A DNA stretch of 64,000 nucleotides, taken from positions 32,001 to 96,000 of IMG/VR virus record IMGVR_UViG_3300049792_000048; one strand, given 5' to 3'. This document shows positions 1,647 to 58,358 of this stretch, piece after piece; within the stretch, counting starts at the first letter, position 1; the number at the start of each line of letters is the position of its first letter. This stretch comes from a virus (lineage: Duplodnaviria > Caudoviricetes). A program made the translations under genes and the position numbers. The notes under the pieces were generated by a model. The model was not told the DNA's origin, did no database searches, and saw nothing but the letters and a program-made list of their open reading frames with translations.

Positions 1647-1661
1647 GCGTAGACTTCAGCG
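1647..1661 (+). promoter_or_regulatory. Putative -10 element (TAGACT) of a leaderless transcript
   Basis: TAGACT at 1650-1655, 6 nt before GTG 1662; 16/18 identical to 50437-50454. Confidence 0.6.
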
Positions 1662-1883
1662 GTGTCCGACGACCGCACTGCCGACCGCAACGCGAAACTG
1701 GATCGCCTCCAGTCCGCGTTCAACGAGTACTACGACCACGAGCACTCACGGCTCACGGACGAGTCCACATACCTGAAGTCGGTCCTTCGCGGTCGTACCG
1801 GCTCCGAGCGGCTGTCCCGTCAGAACACGGCGGAGGCAGAGGTGCTCGTGACCAATGACATCGAGAGCTTCCTCGCGGGGTGA
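1662..1883 (+). CDS. Small hypothetical protein
   Basis: 73-aa ORF with typical codon bias, between the terminator and the next gene. Confidence 0.7.
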   Translation: MSDDRTADRNAKLDRLQSAFNEYYDHEHSRLTDESTYLKSVLRGRTGSERLSRQNTAEAEVLVTNDIESFLAG

Positions 1884-1884
1884 C

Positions 1885-2847
1885 ATGCCAATCACGAATA
1901 TGCTGTTGACGCTCTCTCAGGTGGTGGTCGACCCGGCCACCGCTGTCACGACGTACGACTCGATCCGGTGGTCTCGCTCGATCACTGGTGCAAACGGCGT
2001 GTACGAGGAGATCTCGGCGTACACCGCTCAGCCGGCAGTCCTGACCGGAATGTTCCGTGAGCCTCACGCCCTCAATGGCAAGACCATGCTGTTCAAAGTG
2101 AACGGGGCCACGGTCGTCTCTGTCACGTTCTCAGGTTCCGACCCCTACAGCACCGCATCCGTGATCACGGACATCAACGGGGCCACGGGACTGGTGGTCG
2201 CTTCCGCCGACAGTCTTTCACAGCTAGTGCTGACGACGGTGCTGACAGGAACGGCGGCGTCGATCGAGATCTTGGAGTCTGAGGGAGCCCTCGCTCTCGG
2301 CTTCCAGACCGGAGACTTCGCGATCGGCAAGGGCGTGGACAACACCCTTGGCAGCACGCAACACGAGTACTTCTTCACCGACAGCAATGCCTCGAAGGAG
2401 TACTGGTACAAGACGCAGCTCCGGCATCACACGACGATGGCAGTGGCCCCGCAGAGCGTTCCGATCCCGGGCTCTGAGGTTCCCGTCATCGCGTACGACC
2501 TCCTGATCTCCGCATACGTGAAAGTCATCGACATGCGTGGGCGTCCCATCGAGGGCCGCAACATCGTCATCGCGAACGTCTTTCTCCCCAACACCGTGGG
2601 GGCGTACAACATCTTCCGGCACTACGAGGATGTCGCAACTGACGAGACTGGCTATGCCGTGATCCGTCTGCTGCGTGGCGCCACCATCGACGTGCACGTC
2701 GAGGGAACGAACTTTACTCGCCGTGTGAAGCTCCCTCTAGCTGGGGACCCTGTCGACCTCATCAACCTGTTCGACCCGGTGCTCAGCGACGAGGACGAGT
2801 TCGGTATCCAGCAGCCCGACATCAACTTCGCTATCCGTTTGAGCTGA
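1885..2847 (+). CDS. Putative virion structural protein (beta-rich, Thr/Val/Gly-rich)
   Basis: Composition; sheath/baseplate-like segment LVLTTVLTGTAASIEI...ALALGF; start moved to ATG 1885. Confidence 0.6.
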   Translation: MPITNMLLTLSQVVVDPATAVTTYDSIRWSRSITGANGVYEEISAYTAQPAVLTGMFREPHALNGKTMLFKVNGATVVSVTFSGSDPYSTASVITDINGATGLVVASADSLSQLVLTTVLTGTAASIEILESEGALALGFQTGDFAIGKGVDNTLGSTQHEYFFTDSNASKEYWYKTQLRHHTTMAVAPQSVPIPGSEVPVIAYDLLISAYVKVIDMRGRPIEGRNIVIANVFLPNTVGAYNIFRHYEDVATDETGYAVIRLLRGATIDVHVEGTNFTRRVKLPLAGDPVDLINLFDPVLSDEDEFGIQQPDINFAIRLS

Positions 2848-4353
2848 GTGATGAAGAAGCTCTCGGAGATCATCACAGAGCTGAAGCCGCATCAGCAGCG
2901 GGTGGTCGACCGTATCCAAAAACAGCCAGGGCTGGTTGTCGCTCACGGTATGGGCTCGGGCAAGACCCTGACCTCGATCGCCGCCGCAGAGCGCCTTGGT
3001 GGCAACACGACCGCGGTCGTCCCGGCATCGCTTCAGAGCAACTACCAGAAGGAGCTCGACAAGCATCTCAAGGGGACGCCGAACTCCAGCTACGACATCC
3101 AGAGCCTCCAGCGACAGGCCCTCCAGGGCAGCATCGCGCCCACGGATAATCTGATTGTCGACGAGGCTCACCGGATTCGTGACCCCTCCTCGATGTCGAG
3201 GAAGGTGGTCCGTGGAGCCGAAGCGAAGAAGCGGATGCTGCTGACCGGTACCCCGCTCTACAATCGTCCCTACGACATCGCATCGCTGGTCAATGTCGCC
3301 GCCGGCGAGAACGTCCTTCCTCCAGCCCAAGCCGACTTCGAGAAGCGCTACATCGGAGAGCGGAAGGTCGATCCAGGCTGGATTGCGCGCACGTTCCGTG
3401 GCGTGAAGCCTGGCTCGGTGGCGGAGCTGAAGCGCAAGGACGAGCTCTCGAAGATCTTGGGGCAGTGGGTCGACTTCCACGAGAACACGACCGAGAACTT
3501 CCCGACACGTCACGATGAAGTCGTGAACACCCCGCTTGGGAAAGAGCAGCAGAACGTCTACAACGCGTTGATGGGCGAAGCCCCTTCATGGATCAAGTAC
3601 AAGGTCCAACATGGACTTCCTCCGAGCAAGCAAGAGTCGAAGGACCTCAACGCGTTCTCCAGTGGTGTTCGTCAGGTCTCCCTGAGTCCTGCTGGCTTCC
3701 AGGAAGGGGTTACGCCCGATCAAGCCGCGGCGATGAGTCCGAAGCTTCAGACGGCCTACCAGCGGCTCTCTGATCAGATCGAGAAGAACCCGCAGCATCG
3801 AGCACTCGTGTACTCGAACTTCCTGGAATCAGGTCTTCATCCGTACGAGACGATGCTCCAGCAGGGGAAGATCCCCTACGGCAAGTTCACGGGAGAGCTC
3901 TCGAAGAGTGAGCGCGACCAGATGGTCACCGACTACAACTCCGGCAAGCTGAGAGCTCTGATGCTGTCGAGCGCGGGAGGCGAAGGACTCGACTTGAAGG
4001 GGACTCGACAGATTCAGGTTCTGGAGCCCCACTTCAACAAGGAGAAGCTGGAGCAGGTGATCGCTCGTGGTATCCGTTATGGCAGCCACGCCCATCTCCC
4101 GGAAGACCAACGAAACGTCGCCGTCGAGCACTACGTCTCGCAGCTCCCGAAGCCAGGTATCATTCGCAGGGCGTTCGGCGCGAAGCGTCCTGGCAGTATC
4201 GATGAGTACCTGCGCACGCTCTCCTCGCAAAAGGATGAGCTCAACCAGCAGGTGCGAGACATCCTGAAGACGACGACCGAGCAGCACTCTAAGACTTCGG
4301 GTCTCATGGATGTGGTGGTGTCGTACAGCGACTTGATGACGACTGTGTGTTAG
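2848..4353 (+). CDS. SNF2/SF2-type helicase/ATPase
   Basis: HGMGSGKT, IVDEAH, LLTGTP, SAGGEGLDL, QVIARGIRYGSH motifs. Confidence 0.9.
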   Translation: MMKKLSEIITELKPHQQRVVDRIQKQPGLVVAHGMGSGKTLTSIAAAERLGGNTTAVVPASLQSNYQKELDKHLKGTPNSSYDIQSLQRQALQGSIAPTDNLIVDEAHRIRDPSSMSRKVVRGAEAKKRMLLTGTPLYNRPYDIASLVNVAAGENVLPPAQADFEKRYIGERKVDPGWIARTFRGVKPGSVAELKRKDELSKILGQWVDFHENTTENFPTRHDEVVNTPLGKEQQNVYNALMGEAPSWIKYKVQHGLPPSKQESKDLNAFSSGVRQVSLSPAGFQEGVTPDQAAAMSPKLQTAYQRLSDQIEKNPQHRALVYSNFLESGLHPYETMLQQGKIPYGKFTGELSKSERDQMVTDYNSGKLRALMLSSAGGEGLDLKGTRQIQVLEPHFNKEKLEQVIARGIRYGSHAHLPEDQRNVAVEHYVSQLPKPGIIRRAFGAKRPGSIDEYLRTLSSQKDELNQQVRDILKTTTEQHSKTSGLMDVVVSYSDLMTTVC

Positions 4354-4356
4354 CCT
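4348..4356 (+). promoter_or_regulatory. Putative extended -10 (TGtTAGCCT), leaderless
   Basis: 6 nt before ATG 4363; no SD. Confidence 0.5.
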
Positions 4357-4362
4357 CCGGCC

Positions 4363-5286
4363 ATGGCAGTCGAAGTCGTCGATGTCTTGGTGCGGAGCGT
4401 CGCCGTTCCGAACCCGCCCACATCTGGAGTGTTGGTACGGGTCTATGACGTCACGGGCACGACGCTGATCACGGCCGGCATTACCGACGTCGATGGTCAT
4501 GTATCGTTCATGCTGGATGGAGGCAGCAGCAGCCACATCCGATATCAGCTTCGGACGTTCAAGATCGGGATGGCGCTGCCGCAGCCCGTGTACATCGACG
4601 TCTACTCGCCACCTGCGAGCTCACCGACCGGGACGAACAACTTTCGCCTCGATGCCGAGGTCTTCACGCTCCCGCCCGCAGTCGACCCTGCCCTGTGTCG
4701 CCTCAGTGGCTTCGTCCGTGACCCCGCCGGCCGAGCTCGTCGCGGCCTCGACATCCACTTCATCCACCGCTTCAAGCCCCTGATCGTGGGCGAGGGCGAC
4801 GACTCTGTCGGGGTCTTGGGTGAACGTATCGCAATCCGGACCGACAAGGATGGCTTCCTCCAAGTCGATCTTTATCGGAAGGGCTGCTACCACGCGATCG
4901 TGCAGAGCCACGAGAACGTAGCTCGTGATGTCTTCGTCCCGGACCTTGGGGCTGCGAACATCAACCTCGTTCTCTTTCCGCGCGTCTATGGGGTCGTGTT
5001 CACCCCCTCTACTTTGACGGTGGACGTGGGCACAACCCTCACGGTCAACGTGCAGGTTCAGCTCACCTCGGGGTACGTCATCAACGGCACGGCCTCCGAC
5101 GACATCGACTACAGCCAGCCAGATGGAAACCCGTCCGTTGATCTCCAGGTACTCGATGATCGACTCCTTCTTCGTGGACTCACAACCGGCGCTTCTACCC
5201 TCTTCGTCAAACGGAAGGACACAAGCCTCGCGTATGAACCCGACTCCCCCATCGTCGGCGATGCTACGACAATCCTCGTCGTATGA
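4363..5286 (+). CDS. Putative virion structural protein with beta-sandwich/Ig-like domains
   Basis: GVLVRVYD...TDVDG and TDKDG prealbumin-like fold motifs; C-terminal Big-2-like segment. Confidence 0.6.
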   Translation: MAVEVVDVLVRSVAVPNPPTSGVLVRVYDVTGTTLITAGITDVDGHVSFMLDGGSSSHIRYQLRTFKIGMALPQPVYIDVYSPPASSPTGTNNFRLDAEVFTLPPAVDPALCRLSGFVRDPAGRARRGLDIHFIHRFKPLIVGEGDDSVGVLGERIAIRTDKDGFLQVDLYRKGCYHAIVQSHENVARDVFVPDLGAANINLVLFPRVYGVVFTPSTLTVDVGTTLTVNVQVQLTSGYVINGTASDDIDYSQPDGNPSVDLQVLDDRLLLRGLTTGASTLFVKRKDTSLAYEPDSPIVGDATTILVV

Positions 5287-8136: not shown

Positions 8137-8162
8137 CGCGAGGGCCCAGGGAGTGATAGATT
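8133..8162 (+). promoter_or_regulatory. Putative promoter CTGACG-N18-TAGATT (extended TG), leaderless
   Basis: -10 at 8157-8162, 6 nt before ATG 8169. Confidence 0.55.
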
Positions 8163-8168
8163 CTCGTC

Positions 8169-8495
8169 ATGCCCGAGCAGACCTCTGCTGAAGCGTCACG
8201 AGAGACCATGCAGCACTACCGTGAGGTAGTGGCGGACGTGGTTGGCGTTCTTCGGTCGCAAGAGGTCACGCGGAGCTTCACCAGCATCAGCCTCGAAGAA
8301 CTGATCGATCGGCGTATCGATCGCATCGAGGCCCCGGCGAGCGGAGAGAGACCAGGGCTCATCGCCCGCCTCGACAAGATCAAGAACGACTTCACGGCTG
8401 CAATCGACGGTATTCGGGAGACCCCCGCAGACGCCTTCCGTCAGCCGGACCCGGACACAGACGCCAACACCCCTGACACGGGAACGACCACGTGA
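8169..8495 (+). CDS. Hypothetical protein
   Basis: 108-aa ORF with GTGA overlap into the next gene. Confidence 0.7.
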   Translation: MPEQTSAEASRETMQHYREVVADVVGVLRSQEVTRSFTSISLEELIDRRIDRIEAPASGERPGLIARLDKIKNDFTAAIDGIRETPADAFRQPDPDTDANTPDTGTTT

Positions 8496-9145: not shown

Positions 9146-9148
9146 ACC

Positions 9149-12100
9149 ATGGCCCAGACTGACATCAAGACCTTCTTGCAGGACCTGCTGGTTCGCTTCG
9201 ACCCGTCGATCGACTTGTCGGACGGCAGTCGTGCGCAGACCGAGATCATCGAGCCGATCCTGGGCCGCATCGGTACCGATCCGTTCGACACCGACATCGA
9301 GACCTTCGTCCGTGAGCGAATCACGCAGGCGTTCCCCAAGCTCAACATCACGCAGACCGCGGCCCTCGAAGACACTCTCATCAGTCCGATGCGAGTGCTG
9401 CTGGAGCCGATCGTTCGTGAGGTGAAGCTGGTCAAACTTCGACAGTCCGCAATCGCGAATGCGGAACGTGTCGGGGATGATGAAGTTGATGCTGTCATCG
9501 CGAACTTCTTCGAGGGCCGCAAGACCGGCGGCTACGCTCGTGGTGTCGTGCGGGTGAACTTCCAGGCCCCCACGACGGTCTCCTTCACACTGATCCAGGT
9601 CGCTTCCACCCGAAGCGGGCTTCGCTTCCTGCCATCGCCGGCGCAGACGATCACTGCCGACCAGATGCTCCTGAACCGTGATGGTCAGGAGTTCTACTGC
9701 GACATCAGCTACGTCGCAGAGAAGCGTGGTGACGAGTACAACGTCGACCGCGGAGAGATCATCACGATTGCGAACCTGTCATCGGCGTCGAGGGTTCGGA
9801 ACCTCAATCGGTTCGACAGTGGTGTTCCCCGCGAGAACAGTATCGACCTCGTTGCTCGCGTCGAGTCGAAGCAGGGCGATCGGACCCTCACCACCTCGCG
9901 CGGCATCATCTCCGAGCTCACGGACAACTTCCCTGCGGTCCGCAGGATTCAGGTGATTGGGTTCAAGGACCCCGAGATGCTTCGCGACATCGTGAAGGGT
10001 GGCGGTCTCGGTCCGGCTCTCCCTCCTGACACCTTCGGTCCCGTCTACGGTGCAGCTCAGGCTGTCGATGATGGTGATGGTAACGTCACCACCAAGCGCC
10101 TCTCGGCGTCGACGGGTCACTTCGTGTCGCGCATCGGCTCGGCGGGCTCGGATCCCTCCGCATTCTTCCTCACTCTCGTCTACGAAGACTCGGGACCCGT
10201 GTTGGTGGATGCGCGGGTGTTGGAGGTCATCTCCGACACCGACGTGCTGGTCGACTACGAGTTCCCATCGTTCCCGCTCAACGTGAGCTGGATGCTTCGC
10301 AAGCGCGAGCTGACGATCTCCGACATCCCCGGAGGCATCACCTTGCCGGACACGCCTGATGGACAGCTCATCATCAGGTCCGACGAAGTGCACATCGGTG
10401 GCAAGACCGATCTCTACATCGCGGGTGCTGTGGTTGCACAGACCGTGGCCATCGAGGGCATCTCGGACGAGCAGCCCATCGCTCGCGGCTCGAACGCACA
10501 GACCGGTGTCGCCCTCGGCTCTCCTCCTGCGCTTGACTGGATCATCATCAACGATCCTCCGGGAGGCGCCGCAGCACTCCAGGCCCTCATCTCGGACGGC
10601 AGCTTCAGCATCGTGCTCGATGAAGGAGTCGACGTCGGAAGCTATGACGTCCGCGACAGTGTGGTCTCGGGCTCCACGCTCCAGGTTCGGGTTCCAGTCG
10701 CACTCACGGGTGTCGTGGCAAACCTGCTCTGGAAGATCGTCGATGAAATCAACATCGAGCTGACCGAGACGAAGGACATCAAGGTCGAGGGTGCAGACCT
10801 AGTGATGGTGGCCGGCAACGCTCTGATCACCACTCTCTCTTCAACAAACTTCATCGATGCAAACGTGCAGCAGAACGACATCGTTCGTGTCGATGCGGAT
10901 GAGGCTGGTGGCGACTTCACCGTGCAGGTCGTCGGTGCCGTGTCTCTTCAGGTGTCGCCGGTGCCCATCCGCACTCTGTCGAATCTGAGCTACACGATCT
11001 TTCGTCCGAGTGGCAACGTGCTCACGCCCGTGGTCCGCATCACCGCTCTCGATCTCCTCGACAGCGGTGGCGCTCCGAACGGTGTGAAGATCCCGTACCG
11101 TGACCCGGTCGCGATCATCACCCGCGGCTTCCAGAACGAGGGCTCTGGAGTCGAGTTCGAGGGTTTCCCGCGCTCGATCGGACTCGTTACGGGGGCGATC
11201 GTCACGAGTGTCAACTTCGGCGGAGGGGCCACACTCCTCTTCAACTTCCGCAAGCCGTTGAAGGTCTTCGCTGGTCTGTCGGTGAAGCCTCTGACTCCCG
11301 GCGGCACGTACACCCTGAACCTCGTGGGTATCCTGACTCCGTCTGCGATCGCCACCATCATCAACACCACGGCTGAGCTCGTGGAGCGTCAGGTTCGCGC
11401 TTCCGTGCTGACCTACAACGGAAGCACGTACGTCGGCATCTACTGTCCCGAGTTCGTGGTGATGGGCATCGGTGGCACCGCCAACGCACTGTTGGGCCTC
11501 CCGACGAGTGGGAGGGGTGCAACGAACGCCGACATCGGGCTCCCCACGTTCAATCCACGTCAGGGCGACCTCATCGAGTTCGTCGACGGCAACAACCGCG
11601 GGACGACCCGAGTCTTGCGGGGACACGAGACGTCGTATCTCGCAGCTCTCGTGGGCCTCGGTCCCACGGACGAGGCCTATTCGCTGCCCCTGCATCAGGT
11701 GCAGGTTCTTCTTCCCGAGGTGGGTGTGCGCATCCGTATCGGGCGCCCCTCCGTCGGCTCGGCCCGGGTCTACTTCCTCGCTCCGACATCGGCGGAGTTC
11801 CGCTACCTCACGGCGCAGTTCTCGGTGCTGGTCGGCACGGACACGCTGCTCTATCGCCCTGACCCTGAGAACGATCGCGTCATCCAGCCGCCCCCGCCAC
11901 TCACCGCCCTCCCCGACAATGGGACGACCTCCCTGGGCGCCGTCACGACTGCATTCGAGGATACGACGGTGAACTTCCAGGCTCTCGGGGTACAGGAAGG
12001 GGACTACCTCGACGTCCTCTACCGCCCCATCAAGTCGACTTCTCCTCTCCCGTCTCCAGGAACAATCTCGGCGATCGTGGGCAAGAACTTGATCCTGCGG

Positions 12101-13832: not shown

Positions 13833-13834
13833 TT

Positions 13835-13843
13835 TGTTAGCAT
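13835..13843 (+). promoter_or_regulatory. Putative extended -10 (TGtTAGCAT), leaderless
   Basis: 7 nt before ATG 13851. Confidence 0.5.
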
Positions 13844-13850
13844 GCCATGT

Positions 13851-14402: not shown

Positions 14403-14410
14403 CGACGTCC

Positions 14411-20796: not shown

Positions 20797-20798
20797 AC

Positions 20799-39471: not shown

Positions 39472-39505
39472 AAACCTCCTTCTTCTTCATCTTCCTGATA
39501 GCGGA

Positions 39506-39535
39506 TTGACCGCCCCACCTTTGCCGCCGTACTCT
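39506..39535 (+). promoter_or_regulatory. Sigma70-like promoter TTGACC-N18-TACTCT, leaderless
   Basis: -10 ends 7 nt before ATG 39543; no SD. Confidence 0.65.
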
Positions 39536-39542
39536 TGACCCC

Positions 39543-40847: not shown

Positions 40848-40868
40848 GCGAGTCGAGGAGAGAGCACC

Positions 40869-41951: not shown

Positions 41952-41957
41952 TCGTAG

Positions 41958-42923: not shown

Positions 42924-42963
42924 TCCTCACGGATGGGCCGTGGCGTGGTACAAGAGGCACACG

Positions 42964-45872: not shown

Positions 45873-45899
45873 AAGAAGAGGGGGTTCACCCCTCTTCTC
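45871..45899. terminator. Hairpin terminator between the convergent portal and MoxR operons
   Basis: AGAAGAGGGG-GTTCA-CCCCTCTTCT; U tract on the minus strand. Confidence 0.75.
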
Positions 45900-48554: not shown

Positions 48555-49675
48555 GACGAAGAATCCTTGATGATGGTGCCCATGATCTTGCCCGAGGACT
48601 TCGGATAGAAGTTCTTGAACTCGCGCTTCACAGTCTCGCGAAGCTGAAGAAGGAAGGCGACACGAAGTTCGGGAGACAAGCTCTCGATGAAGAGGTCCAG
48701 CCCCTTGTGCTTCGACGACATCTTCTTGTTGAGGCGATCCGTGACCGCGAAGACTCCCGCGAACTCCGCCATTTTCTGCACGACCTCCACGGGTACCTTC
48801 GGGTCGGTGCTCTTGATGGGCTCCTTGAAGGTTCCGTGTTCGAGGATGTGATCGACATCAACCTTCGAGAGGATGCTGTACCAAGCCCAGAAGTCATTTG
48901 CTGCCCCCTGGCCGATTTTGCGCGTCAGGGTACGAAGCCACAGCTTTGGGTCTGTGAACTCCTGCATGTGCAGCGATGCCTCCCGATAGCCACGTGGTGT
49001 CGGGAAGCGGATGACGTTCTCCTCGTGTTTGTGTAGGAGCTCGGGCTTGCTGTTGAGGAACCCGAGGATGACGGGCACGATGCGCGAGGGCTTCCCGTCC
49101 TCCACGTTGTTCGCCCATTCGACGAAGTCGTTGAAGTCAGCGTCCACTTCGATGGCTGTGACACGGGTCTTGAGGGACTCCGACATCGCGTTGGCGTGGA
49201 TGTCGTCGGTGGTGCGGTTGCCGGCACACATCATCAAGGACTTCGGGTGCAGAGCGAAGTCCTTGAACCGGCGATGCACGAAGAGGTGCAGCAGCGAGTT
49301 CGTGACGATTGGAGTGGCTTTGTCGATGTCGTCGAAGAGCAGCATCGTCGGGCGATGGCAGGCGTCGAACGCCGCACGATTCAACGCCCACAGGACTCGG
49401 AAGTCTTTCTTGGAGAGGTCCGAGGTCTCGACCGGAATGACCCATGGGATGCCCGCAGTGTCGGTCGGATCGGAGGCCTCACCCGTGGGGATGGCCTCGA
49501 AGACGAGAGCGTCCTCGATGACCTTCTCGCCCATCTCGATTGCGAGCTCGGCGGCCATCTCGGTTTTCCCGATGCCCACACCTCCGAGCAGACAGGGGAT
49601 GCTGAGGTATCGGTGCTTGTACTGGACGGTCAGCTCCTGAAGAGCTTCCTGTCGAGCTTCTGAGAACTTCGGCAT
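48551..49675 (-). CDS. MoxR-like AAA+ ATPase
   Basis: GGVGIGKT, DTAGIP, LLFDDIDKA, CAGN, FPTPR. Confidence 0.88.
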   Translation of the reverse strand: MPKFSEARQEALQELTVQYKHRYLSIPCLLGGVGIGKTEMAAELAIEMGEKVIEDALVFEAIPTGEASDPTDTAGIPWVIPVETSDLSKKDFRVLWALNRAAFDACHRPTMLLFDDIDKATPIVTNSLLHLFVHRRFKDFALHPKSLMMCAGNRTTDDIHANAMSESLKTRVTAIEVDADFNDFVEWANNVEDGKPSRIVPVILGFLNSKPELLHKHEENVIRFPTPRGYREASLHMQEFTDPKLWLRTLTRKIGQGAANDFWAWYSILSKVDVDHILEHGTFKEPIKSTDPKVPVEVVQKMAEFAGVFAVTDRLNKKMSSKHKGLDLFIESLSPELRVAFLLQLRETVKREFKNFYPKSSGKIMGTIIKDSSS

Positions 49676-50154
49676 CAGTCTCTCCTCACGATCATGTTGT
49701 CATCCTTGTCCCACTCGACACCTTCGAGGTCGCGATCGAAATCGCGCTCCATGGCATCGTGCATCTCCTGGCTCATCTCATCGAGATGGTCGTCCGGAGG
49801 GAGCACCTCTTCGTCGTCATCGTCATCGATTGAGAGCTCGTCGGTGACACATTCGGCGTGCGCTGGCACGATGGGCTCAGGGGACGGTGTGTTGATCACC
49901 AGGGCGTACTGAGGCTGGCCGGGCCCAAGGGCGTCAGGCAGCTCGATGAACTGGAGCTTCGTGTCCGGATCGAGCACGAACATGGAGTAGCCCTCGTTCT
50001 TCATGTAGAAGAACTGACCACGAAGCATGAGCATCGCATCGGTGTGCTCTCCGACGTGCTCGCTACAGATCGCACAAAGCGGCGTCTCGCCGTCGTTCTC
50101 ACTCACATAGGCCTCCACGATCGTTCTGGAGTGGTAGATGGGCTTGTTCCTCAT
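49675..50154 (-). CDS. Acidic hypothetical protein with a CxxC...HxxC zinc motif
   Basis: CAIC, HAEC; Asp-rich tail. Confidence 0.7.
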   Translation of the reverse strand: MRNKPIYHSRTIVEAYVSENDGETPLCAICSEHVGEHTDAMLMLRGQFFYMKNEGYSMFVLDPDTKLQFIELPDALGPGQPQYALVINTPSPEPIVPAHAECVTDELSIDDDDDEEVLPPDDHLDEMSQEMHDAMERDFDRDLEGVEWDKDDNMIVRRD

Positions 50155-50261
50155 GCGGGCACCGCTGCCTGGGCTTGCGCTCGCATGAGAAGTATCGTCA
50201 GGTAGGCGTTGAGGCCGAGAACAAGACCAGTCGCCACGCTAAGCAGCAGCAGGCTCCACAT
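50151..50261 (-). CDS. 36-aa single-TM microprotein (not in the ORF track)
   Basis: MWSLLLLSVATGLVLGLNAYLTILLMRAQAQAAVPA; GAGGAG upstream; ATGA overlap with the next gene. Confidence 0.55.
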   Translation of the reverse strand: MWSLLLLSVATGLVLGLNAYLTILLMRAQAQAAVPA

Positions 50262-50361
50262 TCTTGTCGGTCTCCTCGATGGATTCTGTGATGGCGCCCT
50301 GAACGAACTCTTCGTACTGCGTCAGGGTGTCCCTCAGATCGTCGTCTTCTTCGTTGGGCAT
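50239..50361 (-). CDS. 40-aa acidic microprotein (not in the ORF track)
   Basis: MPNEEDDDLRDTLTQYEEFVQGAITESIEETDKNVEPAAA; GGAG RBS. Confidence 0.55.
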   Translation of the reverse strand: MPNEEDDDLRDTLTQYEEFVQGAITESIEETDKNVEPAAA

Positions 50362-50415
50362 GGGCTTCTCCATCATGTTGATAGGTCTGTGTAGAGGCTA
50401 TTTCCGTGGGGTTCG

Positions 50416-50445
50416 TTGACCCACCGTGATGCGTGCGCGTAGACT
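50416..50445 (+). promoter_or_regulatory. Sigma70-like promoter TTGACC-N18-TAGACT, leaderless, for the RNAP gene
   Basis: -10 ends 6 nt before GTG 50452; same architecture as 39506-39535. Confidence 0.65.
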
Positions 50446-50451
50446 TCGACG

Positions 50452-53400
50452 GTGCTGAACACCGATCCGAACCGGCAGTACGAGGACCTGAAGCATCGGT
50501 TCCTCGCGGAAATCCAGGCCACGTTCCCGGTCTCGGACCCGAAAACGGGGATCGAAGTCCGGGTGAAGAACTTGGAGGTGTCGGACTCCACGCTCGGGAC
50601 AGACGACATCAAGGGCCAGATGCAGGCCCGGCTCACCGGACGTTCATACACGGCACCTGTCATCGCTGATGTCGAAGTCGTTGATCGTGCCGGCAAGCCG
50701 TTGGTCGGTCGTCGGATGAAGATCGCGGACATCCCGAAGCTGACGCGGCACTACACCTTCATCCACGGCGGGCAAGAGAAGTCGGTCACGAACCAGTGGC
50801 GTCTTCGTCCTGGCGCCTACGTGAAGGCGACCGAGAAGGCTGGCGAGTTCGAGGCACAGTTCCAGCTTGCGAAGGGGCGCCCCTTCGATGTGCAGATGGA
50901 ACCGGGCAGCGGCTACCTCTTCGTGAAGACTGGAGCTCGGAAGATCCCGCTCTACTCAGTCCTCAAGGCCACCGGCGTCACCGATGACGAGATGAAGAAG
51001 GCCTGGGGCGACAAGAACTTCGATGCGAACTTGAAAAAGGCCCGCTACGCACAGGACCTCAACTCGTTCTACACAGCGATGAAGGATGCGAACGTTCCGA
51101 CGGGTACCGACCTTCCGGCAGCGATCGTGAAGTACTTCAGCGAGACGAAAATGGACCCGGCCGTTACGAAGACGACGCTGGGAAAGGGCTTCGATCAGGT
51201 CTCGGGAGAAGCTCTCCTTCGAGCCAGTGGCAAGCTCATCGACGTCAGCGCGGAACGGGTTCGTCCTGATCCCATCGACTCGCTGGAGTTCAAGGAACTG
51301 TGGACTCCGGCCGATCACTTCATCGAACGTCTGCGTGCCTCGAAGAATGACATCCACGGGCGAGTGCTGAAGTCCCTCGGCAAGAAGTCGACACAGGAAG
51401 CGTTGTCGACTGGCTCGACGTCGATCCTCCGTGACATCGTCATGCCCGATTTGATCCAGAAGCCGATCAATCACGTCTTCGGCATCACGGGTCTGACCTC
51501 GACCCCCAAGCAGACGAACCCCGTGTCGATGTTGGCGGACCGTAGCCAGACAACGATCATGGGTCCTGGAGGCATCAAATCGGAGCACCAGGTCACGCTG
51601 TCGAATACAAGCGTCGATCCCTCGCAGCTCGGCTTCGTCGATCCTGTCTTCACTCCCGAAGGTTCTCCGGGAACGACCACCCACCTCACGTCCGGAATCG
51701 TGGTGCGTGACCGCAAGCCGTACACGAAGCTGTACAACTTGAAGACCGGGAAGATCGAGGAGCTCACGCCGGCGGAAGCGGCAAAGGCGATTGTAGTCCT
51801 CCCCGATCAGATCACGTGGCATGGGGGTGTGCCTCGTGCGATCAACGAGAAGGTTCGTGTCTCGAATCAGCATGGCGATATCGAGGAGCGCCCGCTGAAG
51901 GATGCTCACTACGCCCTCATCTCTTCGACACAGGTGTTCTCCACGGAGACCAACCTCGTCCCGTTCATGCAGAACGATGCTGCCGGCCGCACGACCATGT
52001 CGGCGCGACACATGGCACAGGCTCTTTCGCTGACGGGCCGGGAAGCTCCGCTTGTTCAGGTGCAGGCTGCTCCTGGCGCATCGTTTGAGAAGCGGATCGG
52101 TGAGACCTTCCTCTCGCACAAGGCTCCAGCAGCCGGCTTCGTGACGAAGGTATTGGCGGACGAGATCGTGGTGAAGGATCCGGCAGGGCGTGAGCACTCC
52201 GTCCACATCTACGATCACTACCCGCTCAACGAAAAGAAGACGATGTTGCACTCGACGCCCCTCGTGAAGGTGGGTGATCGGGTGCACACCGGGCAGGTCT
52301 TGGCCGATCATTCCTTCACGAAGAACGGGACACTTGCTCTCGGAACAAACGTCCGCGTCGCGTACCTGGCGAACGGTGCGAACCACGAGGATGGCATCGC
52401 CCTCTCCGAGTCGGCGGCGAAGAAGATGGGGACCGAGCATCTCCTGAAGCCGTCATTCTACGTCACCGACGACCATGTTATCGACAAGGGCCGCTTCGTC
52501 GCTCACAAGGGCACGGCCTTCCAACCCACGCAGTACAACCACATCGGCGATGATGGTGTCGTGAAGGAGGGGGCCACGGTCCATCCTGGTGACCCGCTCG
52601 TTCTGGCTCTTCGTGAAGAGAAGAACCCCGACACGATCGACGCGAAGATGCTCGACCGGCTCACCAAGAAGGGCCGCCTCGACTACACGAACGCGGCTCT
52701 GACGTGGGACCACGAACATACCGGAGAGGTTGTTCGTGTGGTCCGCTCCGGCAAGAACATCACTGTTCACGTCAAGACGAAGGAGCCGATGATCGTCGGG
52801 TCCAAGGTCTCGACGCGTCACAGTGCGAAGGGCATCGTCACGCAGATCCTGCCCGACAACGAGATGCCGTACTACATGAAGAATGGCAAGCACGAGCACG
52901 TCGAGATGCTGATCAACCCGGTCTCCGTGCCGGGACGCATGAATCCGGGTCAGATCTTGGAGACTGCCGCAGGCAAGATCGCCGAGAAGACTGGGCAGCC
53001 CTACATCGTCAAGAACTTCGACGGACAGACCGACTACCTGAAAAAGATCCAGAACGAGCTGAAGCATCACGGCCTCAAGGAGACCGAGCTCCTCGTCGAC
53101 CCCAAGACCGATCGCAAGCTCGGCGAGGTGACAGTCGGTCCGCACTACGTGTTCCAGCTCGAACATCAGATCGACAAGAAGACGCACGTCCGACACGGCG
53201 GCGCCTACATCAAGTCGACTGGGATGCCGCACATCCAGTACGACACCAATCTCGTTCCTCGGGGTGGTGGTGAGAGCGGAGCTCAGAGCTTGGGCTCTCT
53301 CGGCATCTACGGCGCTCTTGCTGCTGGTCTCCGTCAGAACCTCGGTGAGATGCAGACCCTCAAGTCCGATCGTCCGCAGGCCGAAGCTCTGTGGGCTGCT

Positions 53401-56400
53401 CTCGCGAACGGCCGGATGATCCCGCCTCCGCAGGTCCCCTACGTCTACAGCAAGTTCGGAGCTCTGCTTCAGGCCACGGGCTTGAACCTGGAGAAGAAGG
53501 GCAGCCTGCTCAGCCTCGTTCCGCAGACCGATGCAGAGACGCTGAAGTGGGCCGGAGGCAAGAGCGGCAAGGTCACCGAGCCATCCCTCACCGTGGCAGC
53601 CAAGAACATGAAGCCGAAGAGCGGAGGCATCTTCGACCCGCACATCTTCGGCCCGGACAAGCAGCGTTGGGGCTACATCGAGCTCGCAGCGCCGATGCCG
53701 AACCCGATCTTCGCTGACTCGATTTCCTCGCTGCTGGGCATCCAGAAGCAGGACATCCAGAAGATTATCTCTGGTGAGATGAAGTTGAACGGCAAGATCG
53801 GGGGCGAGGCGATCCGCGAGGGTCTCGCCAAGATCAACGTCGATCAGAAGCTGAAGCACTACAAGGCGATGATCGACGATCCGAAGGTGAAGAGCAGCGA
53901 GCTCAACAACGCCATCTTCGCGTACAAGTCGCTGCGTGCGCTGAAGGAGCACGGCAAGACGCCTTCCGAGGCGTACACGATGAAGTTGCTCCCGGTGCTT
54001 CCTCCGATCTACCGTCCCTTCCAGGAGAGTGCGGAGGGCACCGACCGCATCGATCCGCTGAACCAGCTTTACCGCCGACTCGGTATGGTGAACTCGTCGT
54101 TGGAGGCCTCGAAGAAGGAAGGCATCCCCGACCGCCGTCTCCTTCAGGCGCAGGGTGATCTCTACCAGGAGATGCAGAACCTTTTTGGCACGACCCCGAA
54201 GGGGAAGAAGGCGCTCGACATCGACTTCCAGGGCAACCCTGTGCGAGGTCGTTTCCTGCCCGGCATCTTGCACACCATCGCGGGTGACTCGCCGAAGGAT
54301 GGCTTCTTCCAGGACAAGGTCATCGGCAAGAAGCAGGACTACACAGCACGAGCCACGATCGTCGCTGACCCAGGTCTCGGTGCCGATGAGATTGGCGTGC
54401 CGAAGAAGATCGCCTTCGAGCTCTTCCGGCCTGTGGTGGGGCATCGCCTCGTGCAGATGGGCTACAACCCGATCCAGGCGCAGCAGGAGATCTCGAAGCG
54501 CTCCGCGGTGGCCGAGGCTGCTCTCCAGCGAGAGATCGAAGAGCGTCCGGTCTTGATGAAGCGTGACCCCGTGCTCCACCAGTACGGCATCATCGGTCAG
54601 AAGGTGAAGCTGACGGATTCGCGAGCCATCAAGGTGAGCCCGCTCGTTCTCCCTCCGATCGGTGGAGACATCGATGGCGATACGGTGGCGCTGTTGCTCC
54701 CCATCCAACACGCCGCAGTCCAGGAAGCGTACAAGCTCCTCCCGTCGAACCGGTCCATCTCGGCAAGTACGGGAGAGGTCCTGTTCACTCCGACGAACGA
54801 GGCGATGCTGGCCCTCTACCGCATGTCCCTCAAGAAGCGGGAGACGAACCAGACGTTCGCATCGTCGAAGGAGGCAGAGGCCGCCTTCGTCAACAACAAG
54901 GTGAACCTCGACGACGTCATCACAGTCGGTGGGCACCGCACCACGCTCGGTCGTGTGCGTATCTCCCACGTCGTACCCGAGCAGTACAAGACGAAGGTCC
55001 TCACTGACATCGACACCCCCATCTCGAAGAAGTTCGTCACGGACATGCTGCGTCAGACGGCGCAGCACTCGCCGGCGACCTTCGAGCCGTTCACGCGCAA
55101 CCTCACCCAGCTCGGCTTCAAGATGGCGTTCGAGAGCGGGCACACTGTGCGGCTGTCGGACTTGGAGCCGATGCGGGTCGAGCGCGCAAAGATCATCGCA
55201 GCTGCGAAGGGACGTGCCGAAGGCAAGCCCGACGCAGAGCGGACGCAGATCTGGATCGACGCCACCAAGAAGCTGCACGAGACGTACGACGAGCACTTCA
55301 AGAAGCACCCCACCAACATCTCGGACATGCGGGCCTCGGGCATCAAGGCCAAGAAGGAGCAGTTCCAGGGCTTGGTGATTGCTCCGATGCTTGTGGAGAA
55401 CCACCTCGGGCATGCCTCGAAGGTGCCGATCACTCGCTCGTTCTCAGAAGGCATCGACGTCGGCGGCTACTTCCTCCAGGCAGCAGGAGCTCGGAAGGGC
55501 ACCATTCAGAAGGTCGACGCTGTCCGTGATCCCGGCGTGCTGACGAAGGAGCTCATCCAGTCCAACATCGACTCGCCCATCACGGCGATGGACTGCGGAA
55601 CCCACTCGGGCATCAGCCTCGGCGTCAACGACCGCGACCTCGTCGACCGCTACCTCGCTTCTCCCGTCACAGCCGGTGGCAAGACGATCCCTGCTGGCAC
55701 CGTCATCACCCCCGGGCTTCAGCAGACCTTCTCGAAGTCGGGTGTCACGAACCTGTTCGTGCGGTCTCCGCTGAAGTGCCGCATGCCGCACGGTATTTGT
55801 TCGACCTGCATGGGCAAGCACCCCTCCGGAGTCAACTACGACTTGGGTGACAACGTCGGCATCATGGCGGCTCAGGCCATCGGTGAGCGTGCTGCACAGC
55901 TCATGCTGAAGCAGACGCACAACCAGGGCATCGTCCCGACGCAGCGTGGTGCCGTCGACGAGTTCAGCACAGTCGAGCGGGTGTTCGGGGTGGCGAAGCG
56001 CTCGCCAGTTGATGCGATCATCGCTCCGCGTGCAGGCCTCATCACCCGTGTCGAGGCTCAGCCGCAGGGTGGCCACAAGATTCGCTTCGCGGAGAGCAAG
56101 GTCGATCTCTACTCTCGGCAGCCGCTTCTTCCGCACGTGAAGGCCGGCTACAGGTTCCAGCGCGGTGAGCAGCTCTCAGAGGGCGACCCGAACCTCAACA
56201 TGCTGCTCAAGACCCGTGGTCTCGAAGCGACACAGGACCACATGGTCGATCGCATCGGGAAGATCTACGAGAAGGAGGACGTCCTTCGTCGTCACGTCGA
56301 GCTTACGGTCCGCAATGCAACCAGCACGGTTGAGGTGTCGGACCCGGGCGACCACCCGACCATCCTCCGTGGGGACCATATGCAGTTCCCCATGATCGAG

Positions 56401-56649
56401 GAAATCAATCGAACCGTGCTCAAGGGCCGGAAGCCGATCGAAGTGCGCCCGGTACTGAAGGCCACGGAGACCACGACCGCGCTGAAGCAGCACGACTGGA
56501 TGGCACGACTTCAGTCGAATCGCCTCCAGGAGCACATCATGACGGCGGCGGCTCTCAACGAGAAGTCCGACGTCCACGGCTTGCACCCAATCCCGGGCTT
56601 GGCGATGGGCAGCGAGTTCGGTAAAGGTCGTGGTGTAGCCAAGTACTGA
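50452..56649 (+). CDS. rpoBC: Two-barrel DNA-directed RNA polymerase, beta-beta' fusion in one polypeptide
   Basis: Beta motifs TPEG, NHED, GSKVSTRHSAKG, NPVSVPGRMNPGQILE; beta' motifs PVLPP.YRP, GKKQDY, RDPVLH, GGDIDGD, GARKG, RSPLKC..C..C, QAIGE. Confidence 0.95.
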   Translation: MLNTDPNRQYEDLKHRFLAEIQATFPVSDPKTGIEVRVKNLEVSDSTLGTDDIKGQMQARLTGRSYTAPVIADVEVVDRAGKPLVGRRMKIADIPKLTRHYTFIHGGQEKSVTNQWRLRPGAYVKATEKAGEFEAQFQLAKGRPFDVQMEPGSGYLFVKTGARKIPLYSVLKATGVTDDEMKKAWGDKNFDANLKKARYAQDLNSFYTAMKDANVPTGTDLPAAIVKYFSETKMDPAVTKTTLGKGFDQVSGEALLRASGKLIDVSAERVRPDPIDSLEFKELWTPADHFIERLRASKNDIHGRVLKSLGKKSTQEALSTGSTSILRDIVMPDLIQKPINHVFGITGLTSTPKQTNPVSMLADRSQTTIMGPGGIKSEHQVTLSNTSVDPSQLGFVDPVFTPEGSPGTTTHLTSGIVVRDRKPYTKLYNLKTGKIEELTPAEAAKAIVVLPDQITWHGGVPRAINEKVRVSNQHGDIEERPLKDAHYALISSTQVFSTETNLVPFMQNDAAGRTTMSARHMAQALSLTGREAPLVQVQAAPGASFEKRIGETFLSHKAPAAGFVTKVLADEIVVKDPAGREHSVHIYDHYPLNEKKTMLHSTPLVKVGDRVHTGQVLADHSFTKNGTLALGTNVRVAYLANGANHEDGIALSESAAKKMGTEHLLKPSFYVTDDHVIDKGRFVAHKGTAFQPTQYNHIGDDGVVKEGATVHPGDPLVLALREEKNPDTIDAKMLDRLTKKGRLDYTNAALTWDHEHTGEVVRVVRSGKNITVHVKTKEPMIVGSKVSTRHSAKGIVTQILPDNEMPYYMKNGKHEHVEMLINPVSVPGRMNPGQILETAAGKIAEKTGQPYIVKNFDGQTDYLKKIQNELKHHGLKETELLVDPKTDRKLGEVTVGPHYVFQLEHQIDKKTHVRHGGAYIKSTGMPHIQYDTNLVPRGGGESGAQSLGSLGIYGALAAGLRQNLGEMQTLKSDRPQAEALWAALANGRMIPPPQVPYVYSKFGALLQATGLNLEKKGSLLSLVPQTDAETLKWAGGKSGKVTEPSLTVAAKNMKPKSGGIFDPHIFGPDKQRWGYIELAAPMPNPIFADSISSLLGIQKQDIQKIISGEMKLNGKIGGEAIREGLAKINVDQKLKHYKAMIDDPKVKSSELNNAIFAYKSLRALKEHGKTPSEAYTMKLLPVLPPIYRPFQESAEGTDRIDPLNQLYRRLGMVNSSLEASKKEGIPDRRLLQAQGDLYQEMQNLFGTTPKGKKALDIDFQGNPVRGRFLPGILHTIAGDSPKDGFFQDKVIGKKQDYTARATIVADPGLGADEIGVPKKIAFELFRPVVGHRLVQMGYNPIQAQQEISKRSAVAEAALQREIEERPVLMKRDPVLHQYGIIGQKVKLTDSRAIKVSPLVLPPIGGDIDGDTVALLLPIQHAAVQEAYKLLPSNRSISASTGEVLFTPTNEAMLALYRMSLKKRETNQTFASSKEAEAAFVNNKVNLDDVITVGGHRTTLGRVRISHVVPEQYKTKVLTDIDTPISKKFVTDMLRQTAQHSPATFEPFTRNLTQLGFKMAFESGHTVRLSDLEPMRVERAKIIAAAKGRAEGKPDAERTQIWIDATKKLHETYDEHFKKHPTNISDMRASGIKAKKEQFQGLVIAPMLVENHLGHASKVPITRSFSEGIDVGGYFLQAAGARKGTIQKVDAVRDPGVLTKELIQSNIDSPITAMDCGTHSGISLGVNDRDLVDRYLASPVTAGGKTIPAGTVITPGLQQTFSKSGVTNLFVRSPLKCRMPHGICSTCMGKHPSGVNYDLGDNVGIMAAQAIGERAAQLMLKQTHNQGIVPTQRGAVDEFSTVERVFGVAKRSPVDAIIAPRAGLITRVEAQPQGGHKIRFAESKVDLYSRQPLLPHVKAGYRFQRGEQLSEGDPNLNMLLKTRGLEATQDHMVDRIGKIYEKEDVLRRHVELTVRNATSTVEVSDPGDHPTILRGDHMQFPMIEEINRTVLKGRKPIEVRPVLKATETTTALKQHDWMARLQSNRLQEHIMTAAALNEKSDVHGLHPIPGLAMGSEFGKGRGVAKY

Positions 56650-57215
56650 TGGCGAATCACCGTCGAGATGTTACTGGCCAGGAACTTGGCCACCTCACGG
56701 CGTTACACCCGACGGGGAAGACCACGCGCTACGGGGTGGTGTGGCTGATTCAGTGTCGATGCGGCAAGAAGATCAAGATGTCGTTGTCGGAGTTCGTACG
56801 GGGACACAACAAACACTACCCGCGAACCTGCGGGTGCGTGCGCAAGAGGATGCGTAGCTCGAAATACAAGGGCATCGGAGACCTCTCACACACACGTTGG
56901 AGGAACATCACGAAGACTGCTGACCGACGTGGGTATGAGATCGGCATCACGATATCTGGTGCCTGGAAGCTTTTCGAGAAGCAAAAAGGTCTATGTGCTC
57001 TGACCGGTCTTCCGATTCAGCTTGCACCGACCACGATGAAGGCCGGAACCTCTACTGCATCGCTAGATCGCATCGACAGCAAGAAGGGCTATATCAAGGG
57101 CAACGTGCAGTGGGTTCACCGCGACATCAACTTCATGAAGCAGGCATTCCCGCAAGATGTCTTCGTGGAGTGGTGCGTCCGTGTCGCTCGACATAGCCAT
57201 AGGGGACGTCGATGA
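56649..57215 (+). CDS. HNH-type free-standing (homing-type) endonuclease
   Basis: WLIQCRCG...TCGC; CALTG...SLDRIDSKKGYIKGNVQWV...NFMK. Confidence 0.8.
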   Translation: MANHRRDVTGQELGHLTALHPTGKTTRYGVVWLIQCRCGKKIKMSLSEFVRGHNKHYPRTCGCVRKRMRSSKYKGIGDLSHTRWRNITKTADRRGYEIGITISGAWKLFEKQKGLCALTGLPIQLAPTTMKAGTSTASLDRIDSKKGYIKGNVQWVHRDINFMKQAFPQDVFVEWCVRVARHSHRGRR

Positions 57216-58312
57216 GCGACGGGCACTACAGCGCTAGCGGTCCCTCGACGGACGCCTTCTTCCCCGCCGTCATCGAGGAAGCGATGGTGACGAACGTCAA
57301 CAAGGCGAACTTCACTGTCAGCGTCGTCACACGTCACACCCAGAAGCCGTTTCAAGACCTTCAGTGCGCTCTGCCATACTTCCACAACGAGAACGGTGAG
57401 GGCATCTACTTCCTCCCCGAGGTTGGGGCTCGCTGCCAGATCTTCCGAGGCAACGACACTACGCCGCCGTTCATCCTCGGCTTCATCGCAATCCCGTCGG
57501 TCATCGAGAGCGACGACGGTACCCCTACCCGAAGCACGTCCGCGGGTGGGAGCACGACCGATGTCTCGTTCCGTGGGCGGCGGCTCGACATCCAGCCCGG
57601 AGACATCTTCATGACGACGCGAGATGAGAACTTCATCTTGCTTCGTCGTGGTGGTGTTCTTCAGCTCGGCTCTACGGAGCTTGCGCAGCGCATCTACATC
57701 CCGATCAACAACTACGTCCGCGACTTCGCGGAGAACTACACGATGGACACCTTTGGCGGGAACATCCGCTGGACGGTGGAACGCCAAGAGAACGATCCGG
57801 GAGGTGATGCTCCCGCGTCGTATGTCTTCCACATGAACGAACATGCGCAGGACGAGAAGGCCTCGTTCCGCATCCGACACTTCCCGCTCCGAGGTCCCGC
57901 AGGAGGCGATGCCCAGGTCTGGGAGATCATGGTTGCATCGCAGGGCATCAATACGGAGACGGGCGAGGTCACGAGCGCCACGTACAGCATGCTCTTGAAA
58001 ATGGACGGCACGAAGACCGAGATGATTGGGGCGAACTACTCGCTTCGTGTGAAGGGCAACTACGACGTTCAAGTAGATGGTGATCTCACCATGAAGGCCA
58101 ACGGCAAGGCACGTGTCGAAGGCGGCTCCGAGGCTCGGGTGAAGGCCACTCAGGTCATCCTCGACGGTGATGTCGTCGCTGGCGGAGCTGGGGCCACTGA
58201 ACCGGGCGTGCTGGGCACCCAGCTCATGACGTACCTGACCACTCTCGGTAGTGCCGCAGGCGTGGGACCGCCCCCTCCCACGATCTTGGCGCAGAAGTTC
58301 AAGCTTCTCTGA
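57212..58312 (+). CDS. Baseplate spike/hub protein (gp5/gpV-like)
   Basis: OB-fold-like YFLPEVGARC...ILGF; beta-helix-like VKGNYDVQVDGDLTMKANG; C-terminal VLG..L...L. Confidence 0.7.
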   Translation: MSDGHYSASGPSTDAFFPAVIEEAMVTNVNKANFTVSVVTRHTQKPFQDLQCALPYFHNENGEGIYFLPEVGARCQIFRGNDTTPPFILGFIAIPSVIESDDGTPTRSTSAGGSTTDVSFRGRRLDIQPGDIFMTTRDENFILLRRGGVLQLGSTELAQRIYIPINNYVRDFAENYTMDTFGGNIRWTVERQENDPGGDAPASYVFHMNEHAQDEKASFRIRHFPLRGPAGGDAQVWEIMVASQGINTETGEVTSATYSMLLKMDGTKTEMIGANYSLRVKGNYDVQVDGDLTMKANGKARVEGGSEARVKATQVILDGDVVAGGAGATEPGVLGTQLMTYLTTLGSAAGVGPPPPTILAQKFKLL

Positions 58313-58342
58313 AGGCAGCTCTCCTCCTGAACACGTTTTCGA

Positions 58343-58351
58343 TGTTAGGAT
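58343..58351 (+). promoter_or_regulatory. Putative extended -10 (TGtTAGGAT), leaderless
   Basis: 7 nt before ATG 58359. Confidence 0.5.
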
Positions 58352-58358
58352 GCACACC

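Follow-up and report, generated by a model that had tools for sequence, protein, structure and literature searches.

Conserved, probably leaderless sigma70-type promoters precede the RNA polymerase gene and virion-module genes in a lineage of large uncultured phages

In a 64,000-bp stretch of an uncultured tailed phage genome (IMG/VR record IMGVR_UViG_3300049792_000048), a set of genes that includes the phage's own RNA polymerase (RNAP) gene is preceded by TAnnnT hexamers ending 6-7 nucleotides (nt) before the start codon. As the best overall explanation, these hexamers probably mark a conserved regulon of sigma70/sigmaA-type leaderless promoters, which we term class A. The consensus would be TTGaCC-N18-(G)TAG(R)CT, with an extended -10 (TGn) in members that lack a -35 element, and with the last -10 base placed 6-7 nt before ATG or GTG, transcription would begin on the start codon itself. 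The regulon would lie on the majority strand and join virion-module genes to the gene for a fused beta-beta' RNAP. An initial annotation of this DNA had read eight of the hexamers as leaderless -10 elements of late genes; the sigma70-type -10 at a leaderless distance appears sound from the sequence, and the late timing is held more tentatively.

The window, i.e. the whole stretch analyzed, covers bases 32001-96000 of the 195,774-bp record (genome G0), and coordinates refer to the window unless marked "genome". The termini of the record overlap by 127 bp, suggesting that the assembly is probably circular, and the guanine-cytosine (GC) content is 60%. Genes were called with a signal-blind caller, which scores coding potential alone and ignores the upstream sequence; it returned 253 genes in G0, 200 of them on the + strand and only 21% on the minus strand. 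For comparison, we used six relatives: G1 (84% nucleotide identity), G2 (a 49-kb fragment), and the complete genomes G3, G4, G5, and G6, whose RNAPs are 54-73% identical. The footprint of the RNAP gene was compared across 19 related loci with 35-96% protein identity. A megablast search of the RNAP region against GenBank phages gave no match, indicating that there is no close phage at the nucleotide level.

Positional enrichment of TAnnnT hexamers

With starts assigned by the signal-blind caller, TAnnnT is found before 9 genes of G0 at d = 6 and before 2 at d = 7, where d is the number of nt between the last base of the hexamer and the start codon. These 11 genes compare with 1.44 expected from offsets 15-53 (about 0.7 per offset; Poisson P = 3.6e-7), the background frequency of the hexamer in G0 being 0.0016 per nt. 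The initial annotation implied an enrichment over shuffled controls, and this was borne out, as none of 500 mononucleotide shuffles attained 11 genes. An isolated peak at d = 6 also occurs in each of the six relatives (P from 3e-5 to 1e-12), with 9-13 genes per complete genome versus 0.2-0.8 expected and 4 genes in the G2 fragment. About half of the other genes carry a clear Shine-Dalgarno (SD) sequence, in contrast to its absence at the class A sites.

A generic sigma70 consensus scan of positions 38600-58500 retrieved 3 matches versus 3.0 expected, i.e. no excess, indicating that the signal is positional and comparative; the scan does recover the RNAP promoter. Full TTGAC-N17-19-TANNNT matches number 6 in the genome, and 4 of the 6 sit 6-7 nt before a start codon.

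All eight hexamers of the initial annotation are present before an ATG or GTG, with d = 6 or 7 in every case. The 16/18 match that it noted between 1647-1664 and 50437-50454 was reproduced, as was the TGn extension at four sites (4351, 8157, 13838, and 58346). Its (T/C)TGAC motif was recovered 18 nt upstream of 39530, 50440, and 8157, and only the first two copies were retained as -35 elements: the CTGAC at 8134, upstream of site 8157, includes the TGA stop of the upstream gene and loses its spacing in G1. The description "no clear SD" holds for the 6-7 nt gaps, with the qualification that TAGGAT itself includes AGGA (43902 and 58346).

Architecture and conservation of class A sites

Among 85 pooled sites from five genomes, TTGnCC at N18 is found in about half, a G is found at -13/-14, and the -10 is TAG(R)CT; almost all class A sites lie on the majority strand. 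Across orthologues, the first T, the A, and the final T of the hexamer are conserved and the spacing is fixed, and the interior and flanking positions vary. The two sites with a -35 at N18 (39506 and 50416) keep this layout in 7/7 genomes, and the TGn of the four sites that carry one is mostly conserved; in G0, a -35 and a TGn never occur at the same class A site. At sigma70 promoters, a -10 ending 6-7 nt before a purine-initiated start codon puts the +1 position on that codon. The class A spacing agrees with the published signature of bacterial leaderless genes, a TANNNT about 12 nt before the start codon (PMC3160421).

Table 1 Coordinates of the features discussed (window numbering unless marked genome).
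Feature	Coordinates	Strand	Description
RNAP promoter	50416-50454	+	-35 TTGACC 50416-50421, N18, -10 TAGACT 50440-50445, 6 nt, GTG 50452
Promoter of gene 39543	39506-39545	+	-35 TTGACC 39506-39511, N18, -10 TACTCT 39530-39535, 7 nt, ATG
Site 1650	1650-1664	+	-10 TAGACT, 6 nt, GTG 1662; neither -35 nor TGn
Site 4351	4348-4365	+	TGt, -10 TAGCCT 4351-4356, 6 nt, ATG 4363 (307 aa)
Site 8157	8154-8171	+	TGa, -10 TAGATT 8157-8162, 6 nt, ATG 8169
Site 13838	13835-13853	+	TGt, TAGCAT 13838-13843; HNH/endonuclease VII gene start 13851 or 13842
Site 43902	43902-43916	+	-10-like TAGGAT, 6 nt, ATG 43914 of portal gene; neither -35 nor TGn
Site 58346	58343-58361	+	TGt, -10 TAGGAT 58346-58351, 7 nt, ATG 58359
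Class B element	467-488	+	motif match
Class B element	39496-39501	-	CTATCA; heads replication block, back to back with 39530 promoter
Class B element	50379-50384	-	CTATCA; divergent from RNAP promoter
RNAP gene	50452-56649	+	fused beta-beta' multisubunit type, 2065 aa
Sigma70-family factor	818-1606	+	262 aa; candidate alternative reader of class A
Portal gene	43914-45872	+	homologue of Arash gp204, E = 2.5e-65
Helicase gene	2848-4353		match to Arash gp217
Structural protein gene	9149-13180		match to Arash gp13
Terminase gene	61912		match to Arash terminase
Cell-wall hydrolase gene	genome 28220		match to Arash gp8

The RNAP promoter is strongly conserved. In 17 of the 19 loci, each of these 17 having 53-96% protein identity, it reads (G)TTGACC(C)-N18-TAGACT-N6-GTG, with a -10 that is rarely TAAACT or TAAGCT, and the layout is present in 7/7 genomes. 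Neither the 18-nt spacer nor the 6-nt discriminator is related between the 17 loci. The GTG at 50452 is the first possible start of the open reading frame (ORF), and the homologues align from residue 1. The promoter of gene 39543 (39543-40847, 434 aa, no recognised function) likewise appears in 7/7 genomes as TTGACC-N18-TA(C/T)NNT-N6/7-ATG; its -10 variants (TACTCT, TATTCT, TACCCT, TACGCT, TATCCT, and TACGAT) share only the T, A, and final T.

In total, conservation at orthologous genes holds for 6 of the 8 sites. Site 1650 lies directly 3' of a terminator-like hairpin (1611-1631), and its GTG opens a 73-aa gene at the head of the unit with the helicase gene; the site is kept in G1, G3 has a hairpin followed by TATACT-N6-GTG, and in G4-G6 the gene is SD-led or operon-internal. 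At site 4351, the TAG doubles as the stop codon of the helicase gene. A TANNNT at d = 6-7 is found in 5 of the 6 genomes having the downstream gene, and the hexamer is kept in G4 and G6, where the orthologue is the first gene of a divergent unit with a class B element alongside (see below), which argues that this hexamer is not merely a stop codon. Site 8157 precedes a 108-aa gene at the head of the unit with the structural protein gene 9149-13180; TAGATT, TAGCCT, TAAGGT, or TAGAGT occurs at d = 6 in 5 of the 6 genomes having the gene, and the TGn is kept in G0, G1, G3, and G5, not in G4.

The portal-gene hexamer at 43902 sits within the 3' end of gene 42940-43917 and occurs as TAGGAT or TAGTAT at d = 6 in G0-G3 only, the near subclade. 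An AGGA SD reading of this site is possible in G0, and the TAGTAT in G2 and G3 counts against it. Site 58346 precedes a 692-aa gene with no recognised function, whose orthologues show TAGGAT, TAGTAT, TAGGCT, TACGAT, TACCAT, or TAAGGT at d = 6-7, mostly after a TGn. L030 has a spacing of 10 nt, and in L033/G6 and the L037-L039 clade (about 35% identity) the gene is led by an SD. At sites 13838 and 58346, an alternative in-frame ATG lies within the hexamer; for gene 58359, the conserved MDLF N-terminus and the orthologues back the start given in the initial annotation. The starts at 50452, 39543, 43914, 4363, and 8169 are the first possible in their ORFs. Elsewhere, TANNNT is kept at a fixed distance with varying interiors at genome sites 1078, 28205, and 133221.

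The gene at site 13838 is assigned to the HNH/endonuclease VII family by Pfam and PHROG matches. A segment of about 570 nt (13833-14406) carrying the gene and its hexamer is absent from G1, and no orthologue is found in G1-G4 or G6; the gene looks like a free-standing homing endonuclease using the same expression signal. As a separate observation, in L037-L039 a leaderless -10 is missing from the RNAP gene and likewise from the gene 58359 orthologue. The leaderless habit thus stops short of the whole family, a limit that presumably tracks the host.

Genes under the probable class A promoters

The RNAP contains the Pfam domains RNA_pol_Rpb2_6, Rpb2_3, Rpb1_1, Rpb1_2, and Rpb1_5, and its beta'-like locus is single in the complete genome, making it the only RNAP gene. 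The enzyme is not N4-like in type, since it is a fused beta-beta' protein with Rpb2 and Rpb1 domains rather than a single-subunit virion RNAP (vRNAP) of the N4 type. It also differs from the phiKZ/AR9-type jumbo phages, which have two separate multisubunit RNAPs (virion and non-virion). The family comprises at least 210 fused homologues, many of them on contigs of 150-200 kb; their length is about 2050-2100 aa except where intein or endonuclease inserts are present. Many homologues measure 2400-2980 aa and carry intein/homing-endonuclease domains (PF14528, PF05204, and PF14890), and in Vibrio phages D181 and D148 the RNAP gene is interrupted by homing endonuclease genes.

The protein encoded at 818-1606 is the only sigma-like gene product of the genome. 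It is orthologous to gene product 10 (gp10) of the Salmonella phage Arash, annotated as a sigma factor (E = 4.5e-11). From sequence alone, the Pfam Sigma70_r2 match is weak (E ~0.1, below cut-offs). The structural model is of moderate quality (predicted local distance difference test, pLDDT, 70.7); the 50 PDB matches listed by Foldseek were all sigma factors, nearly all of them chains of RNAP holoenzymes (E ~4e-6), and the alignments, of about 230-320 columns each, span a sigma2-sigma3-sigma4 fold.

The class had been described as lying on morphogenesis and RNAP genes. This fits the RNAP gene, the portal gene, and the neighbours of genes matching Arash virion proteins (PMC10585845). Of the class A genes, the portal gene alone has an evident morphogenetic role, and most of the others could not be assigned a function.

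A second motif class in divergent arrangement

A second motif, class B, has the form cCTAT(C/A)AG-n-aaGaTGaaGG (CCTATCAG) and is followed by an SD and, 16-21 nt on, by the start codon. About 24 copies precede genes, split equally between the strands, and the motif is conserved in the clade. Class B elements stand at the head of the minus-strand block for replication, which has genes for a helicase, DnaB, PolA, and a RecA-like protein; they also precede many small genes and the small sigma operon. Upstream of the RNAP promoter, CTGATAG or GTTGATAG is kept in the relatives, and a related motif, GGTACAAG-tAGAGTAAC, is found at locus L037. Two hexamers were rejected as class A sites: the TAGACT at genome 154812 is followed by a class B element and an SD-led start, and the TAGGAT at genome 167046 belongs to a class B element.

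The two classes stand back to back in divergent gaps of 41-83 nt, at 39472-39542 and 50377-50451 in the window and at 17288-17328, 28137-28219, and 126529-126579 in the genome. Measured from the class A -10, the class B core is 10-12 nt upstream in the two shortest of these gaps; in the gap 39472-39542, 4 nt separate the core from the class A -35. At such pairs, overlapping polymerase footprints could produce a mutually exclusive early/late switch.

A conserved class A-type TATCCT, replaced by TAGGCT or TAAGGT in G4 and G6, stands about 30-40 nt ahead of the SD-led start of the first head-module gene (gap at genome 98752-98831), and it appears to be a leadered member of the class A-type -10 elements. 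The same gap also contains an inverted repeat, CTGATGCA...TGCATCAG.

Comparison with Salmonella phage Arash

Arash (OQ632216; PMC10585845) is a distant family member whose RNAP is about 31% identical; its portal, terminase, sigma, helicase, and capsid proteins are homologous. It differs in that its RNAP is split and its host is an enterobacterium. A promoter analysis of Arash is absent from the published literature. Two motif classes, often in back-to-back divergent pairs, are again found in its genome. At least 14 copies of the class B-like motif, GGTATAAG-nAAG-TGTAAAC with an SD, are present in 100 kb, 13 on the minus strand. Downstream of the class A-like motif, cCTAAAAT, comes a leader with an SD, about 15-40 nt long (mostly 20-30), and the motif precedes the portal, beta', and structural genes. 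Class B is hence kept across very different hosts, while class A is altered and leadered, suggesting that class B is phage-read and class A is host-read.

In Arash, the RNAP gene comes directly after the portal gene. In mass spectrometry of Arash virions, RNAP beta had more spectra than any other protein, and beta', sigma, and the helicase were detected as well (PMC10585845). The virion list comprises 116 proteins, including ribonucleotide reductase and deoxynucleoside monophosphate (dNMP) kinase (PMC10585845); with such metabolic enzymes on it, carry-over of abundant non-structural proteins is possible.

The nature of the hexamers and their reader

Judged on sequence evidence, class A sites are very probably genuine sigma70/sigmaA-type promoters giving leaderless, SD-less mRNAs. 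Several points weigh against a leaderless regulon of this kind read by the host. Site 13838 is the weakest of the eight, its gene being on a mobile segment missing from the relatives; the portal gene is SD-led in G4-G6; an upstream TAG stop is used as the -10 at three sites (4351 and genome 31766 and 133221); and AGGA lies inside the TAGGAT of 43902 and 58346. In addition, positions of the RNAP promoter that are usually free to vary (GTTGACCC, TAGACT) stay unchanged although the proteins diverge by about 50%, which exceeds the needs of housekeeping-sigma recognition; the Arash cCTAAAAT is uniform, without -35 or TGn, and looks factor-specific; and a phage sigma70-family factor with a sigma2-sigma4-like architecture, as modelled here, could read -35, TGn, and -10 elements.

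Alternatively, the hexamers might not be promoters at all, and might instead be by-products of TAG stops 9 nt before the next start, weak AGGA SDs, or chance. We regard this as very improbable. The three upstream stops, the 7-nt distance of the AGGA in TAGGAT to the ATG, and the lack of excess in the generic scan would all fit such an origin, as would genome 161388, where another TAG stop has a 9-nt gap but reads TAGGAG, a true SD. However, the majority of sites are not stop codons, and orthologues swap TAGGAT for TACCAT, TACGAT, TAGTAT, or TAAGGT, which are not SDs, while keeping the distance and the T, A, and final T. By-products would also leave the -35 and TGn signals unexplained, and the enrichment reaches P of 1e-5 to 1e-12 in seven genomes. 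Based on the orthologues of site 4351, with the hexamer kept at the divergent unit head in G4 and G6, and on the non-SD replacements, the stop-codon and AGGA-SD explanations were rejected for the class as a whole. As a side observation, the three TAG stops (4351-4365; genome 31766-31780 and 133221-133235) are in frame with the next ATG or GTG, 9 nt on. If such a stop were read through, the proteins on either side would be joined, for example the helicase 2848-4353 and the product of 4363-5286.

Concerning the reader, we lean slightly towards recognition of class A by the host housekeeping sigmaA holoenzyme. The housekeeping-sigma-like character proposed by the initial annotation is thus the better reading, with the phage sigma as a serious rival. 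Phage-encoded sigma factors such as SPO1 gp28/gp34 and T4 gp55 direct late transcription. Here, the factor encoded at 818-1606 might read class A with the phage beta-beta' enzyme or the host core, the housekeeping likeness reflecting the shared chemistry of sigma2/sigma3/sigma4, a possibility that we consider rather unlikely. It draws on a sigma-like fold that covers the whole protein, the orthology to Arash gp10, the pairing of one sigma-like gene with one RNAP gene in the genome, the extreme invariance of the RNAP promoter, the uniformity of the Arash motif, and the presence of both RNAP and sigma in Arash virions (PMC10585845). Nevertheless, the factor has diverged far from primary sigmas, as its Pfam score indicates, yet the motif is canonical housekeeping, including TGn; the -10 interiors drift between orthologues, as with the tolerant TANNNT of sigmaA; and class A varies with the host while class B is constant across hosts. 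Assigning the phage sigma to class A would also leave class B without an identified reader.

With the host sigmaA holoenzyme on class A, the phage RNAP would be left to read class B on the replication and small genes. Whether the RNAP is made late and packaged is more tentative; the synteny, together with the proteomics of a relative with about 30% identity, suggests by analogy that it may be. It is less likely, in our estimation, that the order resembles that of T7, where the host RNAP would fire the -35-bearing class A promoters (RNAP gene and gene 39543) at once, the new phage RNAP would turn to class B, and the RNAP would not be a functional virion component. Such an order would be served by TTGACC-N18-TAGACT, which is complete as a host-type promoter, does not obviously require an activator, and has no sequence feature that delays it, and the 116-protein virion list of Arash permits carry-over. 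On the other hand, the RNAP gene lies within the portal/terminase/virion block on the same strand and with the same promoter class, and it comes directly after the portal gene in Arash; a class A-type -10, here leadered, heads the head module too; RNAP beta ranks top by spectra in Arash particles; and virion genes would be switched on ahead of replication genes.

The comparison with N4 fails for the type of enzyme, and an N4-like logic of the programme is plausible, although we hold it only tentatively. If the RNAP is packaged, the two systems would share an injected RNAP for the early genes and a host sigma70 holoenzyme for the late genes, including the RNAP gene. They differ in that N4 has a giant single-subunit, T7-like vRNAP with hairpin promoters, a second phage RNAP for the middle genes, and late promoters that need the N4 single-stranded DNA-binding protein (SSB), whereas here one fused beta-beta' RNAP gene is accompanied by a sigma-like factor. 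We would propose, as a speculative scheme for this clade of 150-200 kb phages, an inverted programme run with a cellular-type enzyme, in which the single-chain beta-beta' RNAP and a phage sigma would be made late, together with the virion genes, from leaderless promoters read by host sigmaA, and the enzyme would then be packaged and injected to read class B. The injected RNAP would act on class B (CCTATCAG here and GGTATAAG in Arash) for early and replication genes, and the back-to-back, partly overlapping class A and class B promoters would act as an early-to-late switch.

Relation to known systems and significance

The TANNNT leaderless promoter itself is textbook for high-GC bacteria; what is new is its context, a conserved role in the regulon of a polymerase-encoding phage clade. 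Leaderless genes have been predicted in Actinobacteria, Deinococcus-Thermus, Acidobacteria, and delta-proteobacteria (Zheng et al. 2011, PMC3160421). Class A shares with bacterial leaderless genes (PMC3160421; Deinococcus deserti, PMC4007540) the hexamer, its distance from the start, the ATG/GTG starts, the lack of an SD, and the little information at interior positions in high-GC genomes. It differs in being phage-borne, in comprising about 15-20 conserved genes of one functional module, and in having a second promoter class alongside. Among phages, many middle and late transcripts of the Thermus phage P23-45 are reportedly leaderless, an observation attributed to Berdygulova et al. 2011. P23-45 promoters of the middle and late classes (PMC7403470) are used by the host sigmaA holoenzyme, as proposed here, and have an extended -10 without a -35. 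In contrast, P23-45 is without its own RNAP and switches classes by gp39 and gp76, whereas the present phage has an RNAP and a sigma, and some of its class A promoters have a strong -35.

The mReC lineage of RNAP-encoding Caudovirales was described in a phylogeny paper (Weinheimer and Aylward 2020, PMC7481178); like the present phages, it consists of large uncultured tailed phages with cellular-type beta and beta' subunits, with many contigs of 150-200 kb. A search of the text of PMC7481178 gave no mention of promoters, sigma, or virions. For the large, mostly uncultured lineage of phages with a cellular-type beta and beta' RNAP, the transcription strategy was previously undescribed; the present map assigns two promoter-like classes to functions and strands, both kept in much of the lineage, and shows an essentially invariant promoter on the polymerase gene itself. 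Arash on Salmonella provides a cultivable system in which RNAP packaging, sensitivity to rifampicin, and the model of two classes can be addressed. There is also a consequence for annotation, since start codons in these phages will be misplaced by gene callers that look for an SD.

Host

A high-GC soil bacterium with frequent leaderless translation is the probable host. A literature search for leaderless transcription start site (TSS) data in Myxococcus yielded nothing relevant, and a query of genome contigs with the RCC1-like lipoprotein of the phage found no relative. The neighbours of this lipoprotein in a protein atlas are mostly from Myxococcota, which is only a lead to the host.

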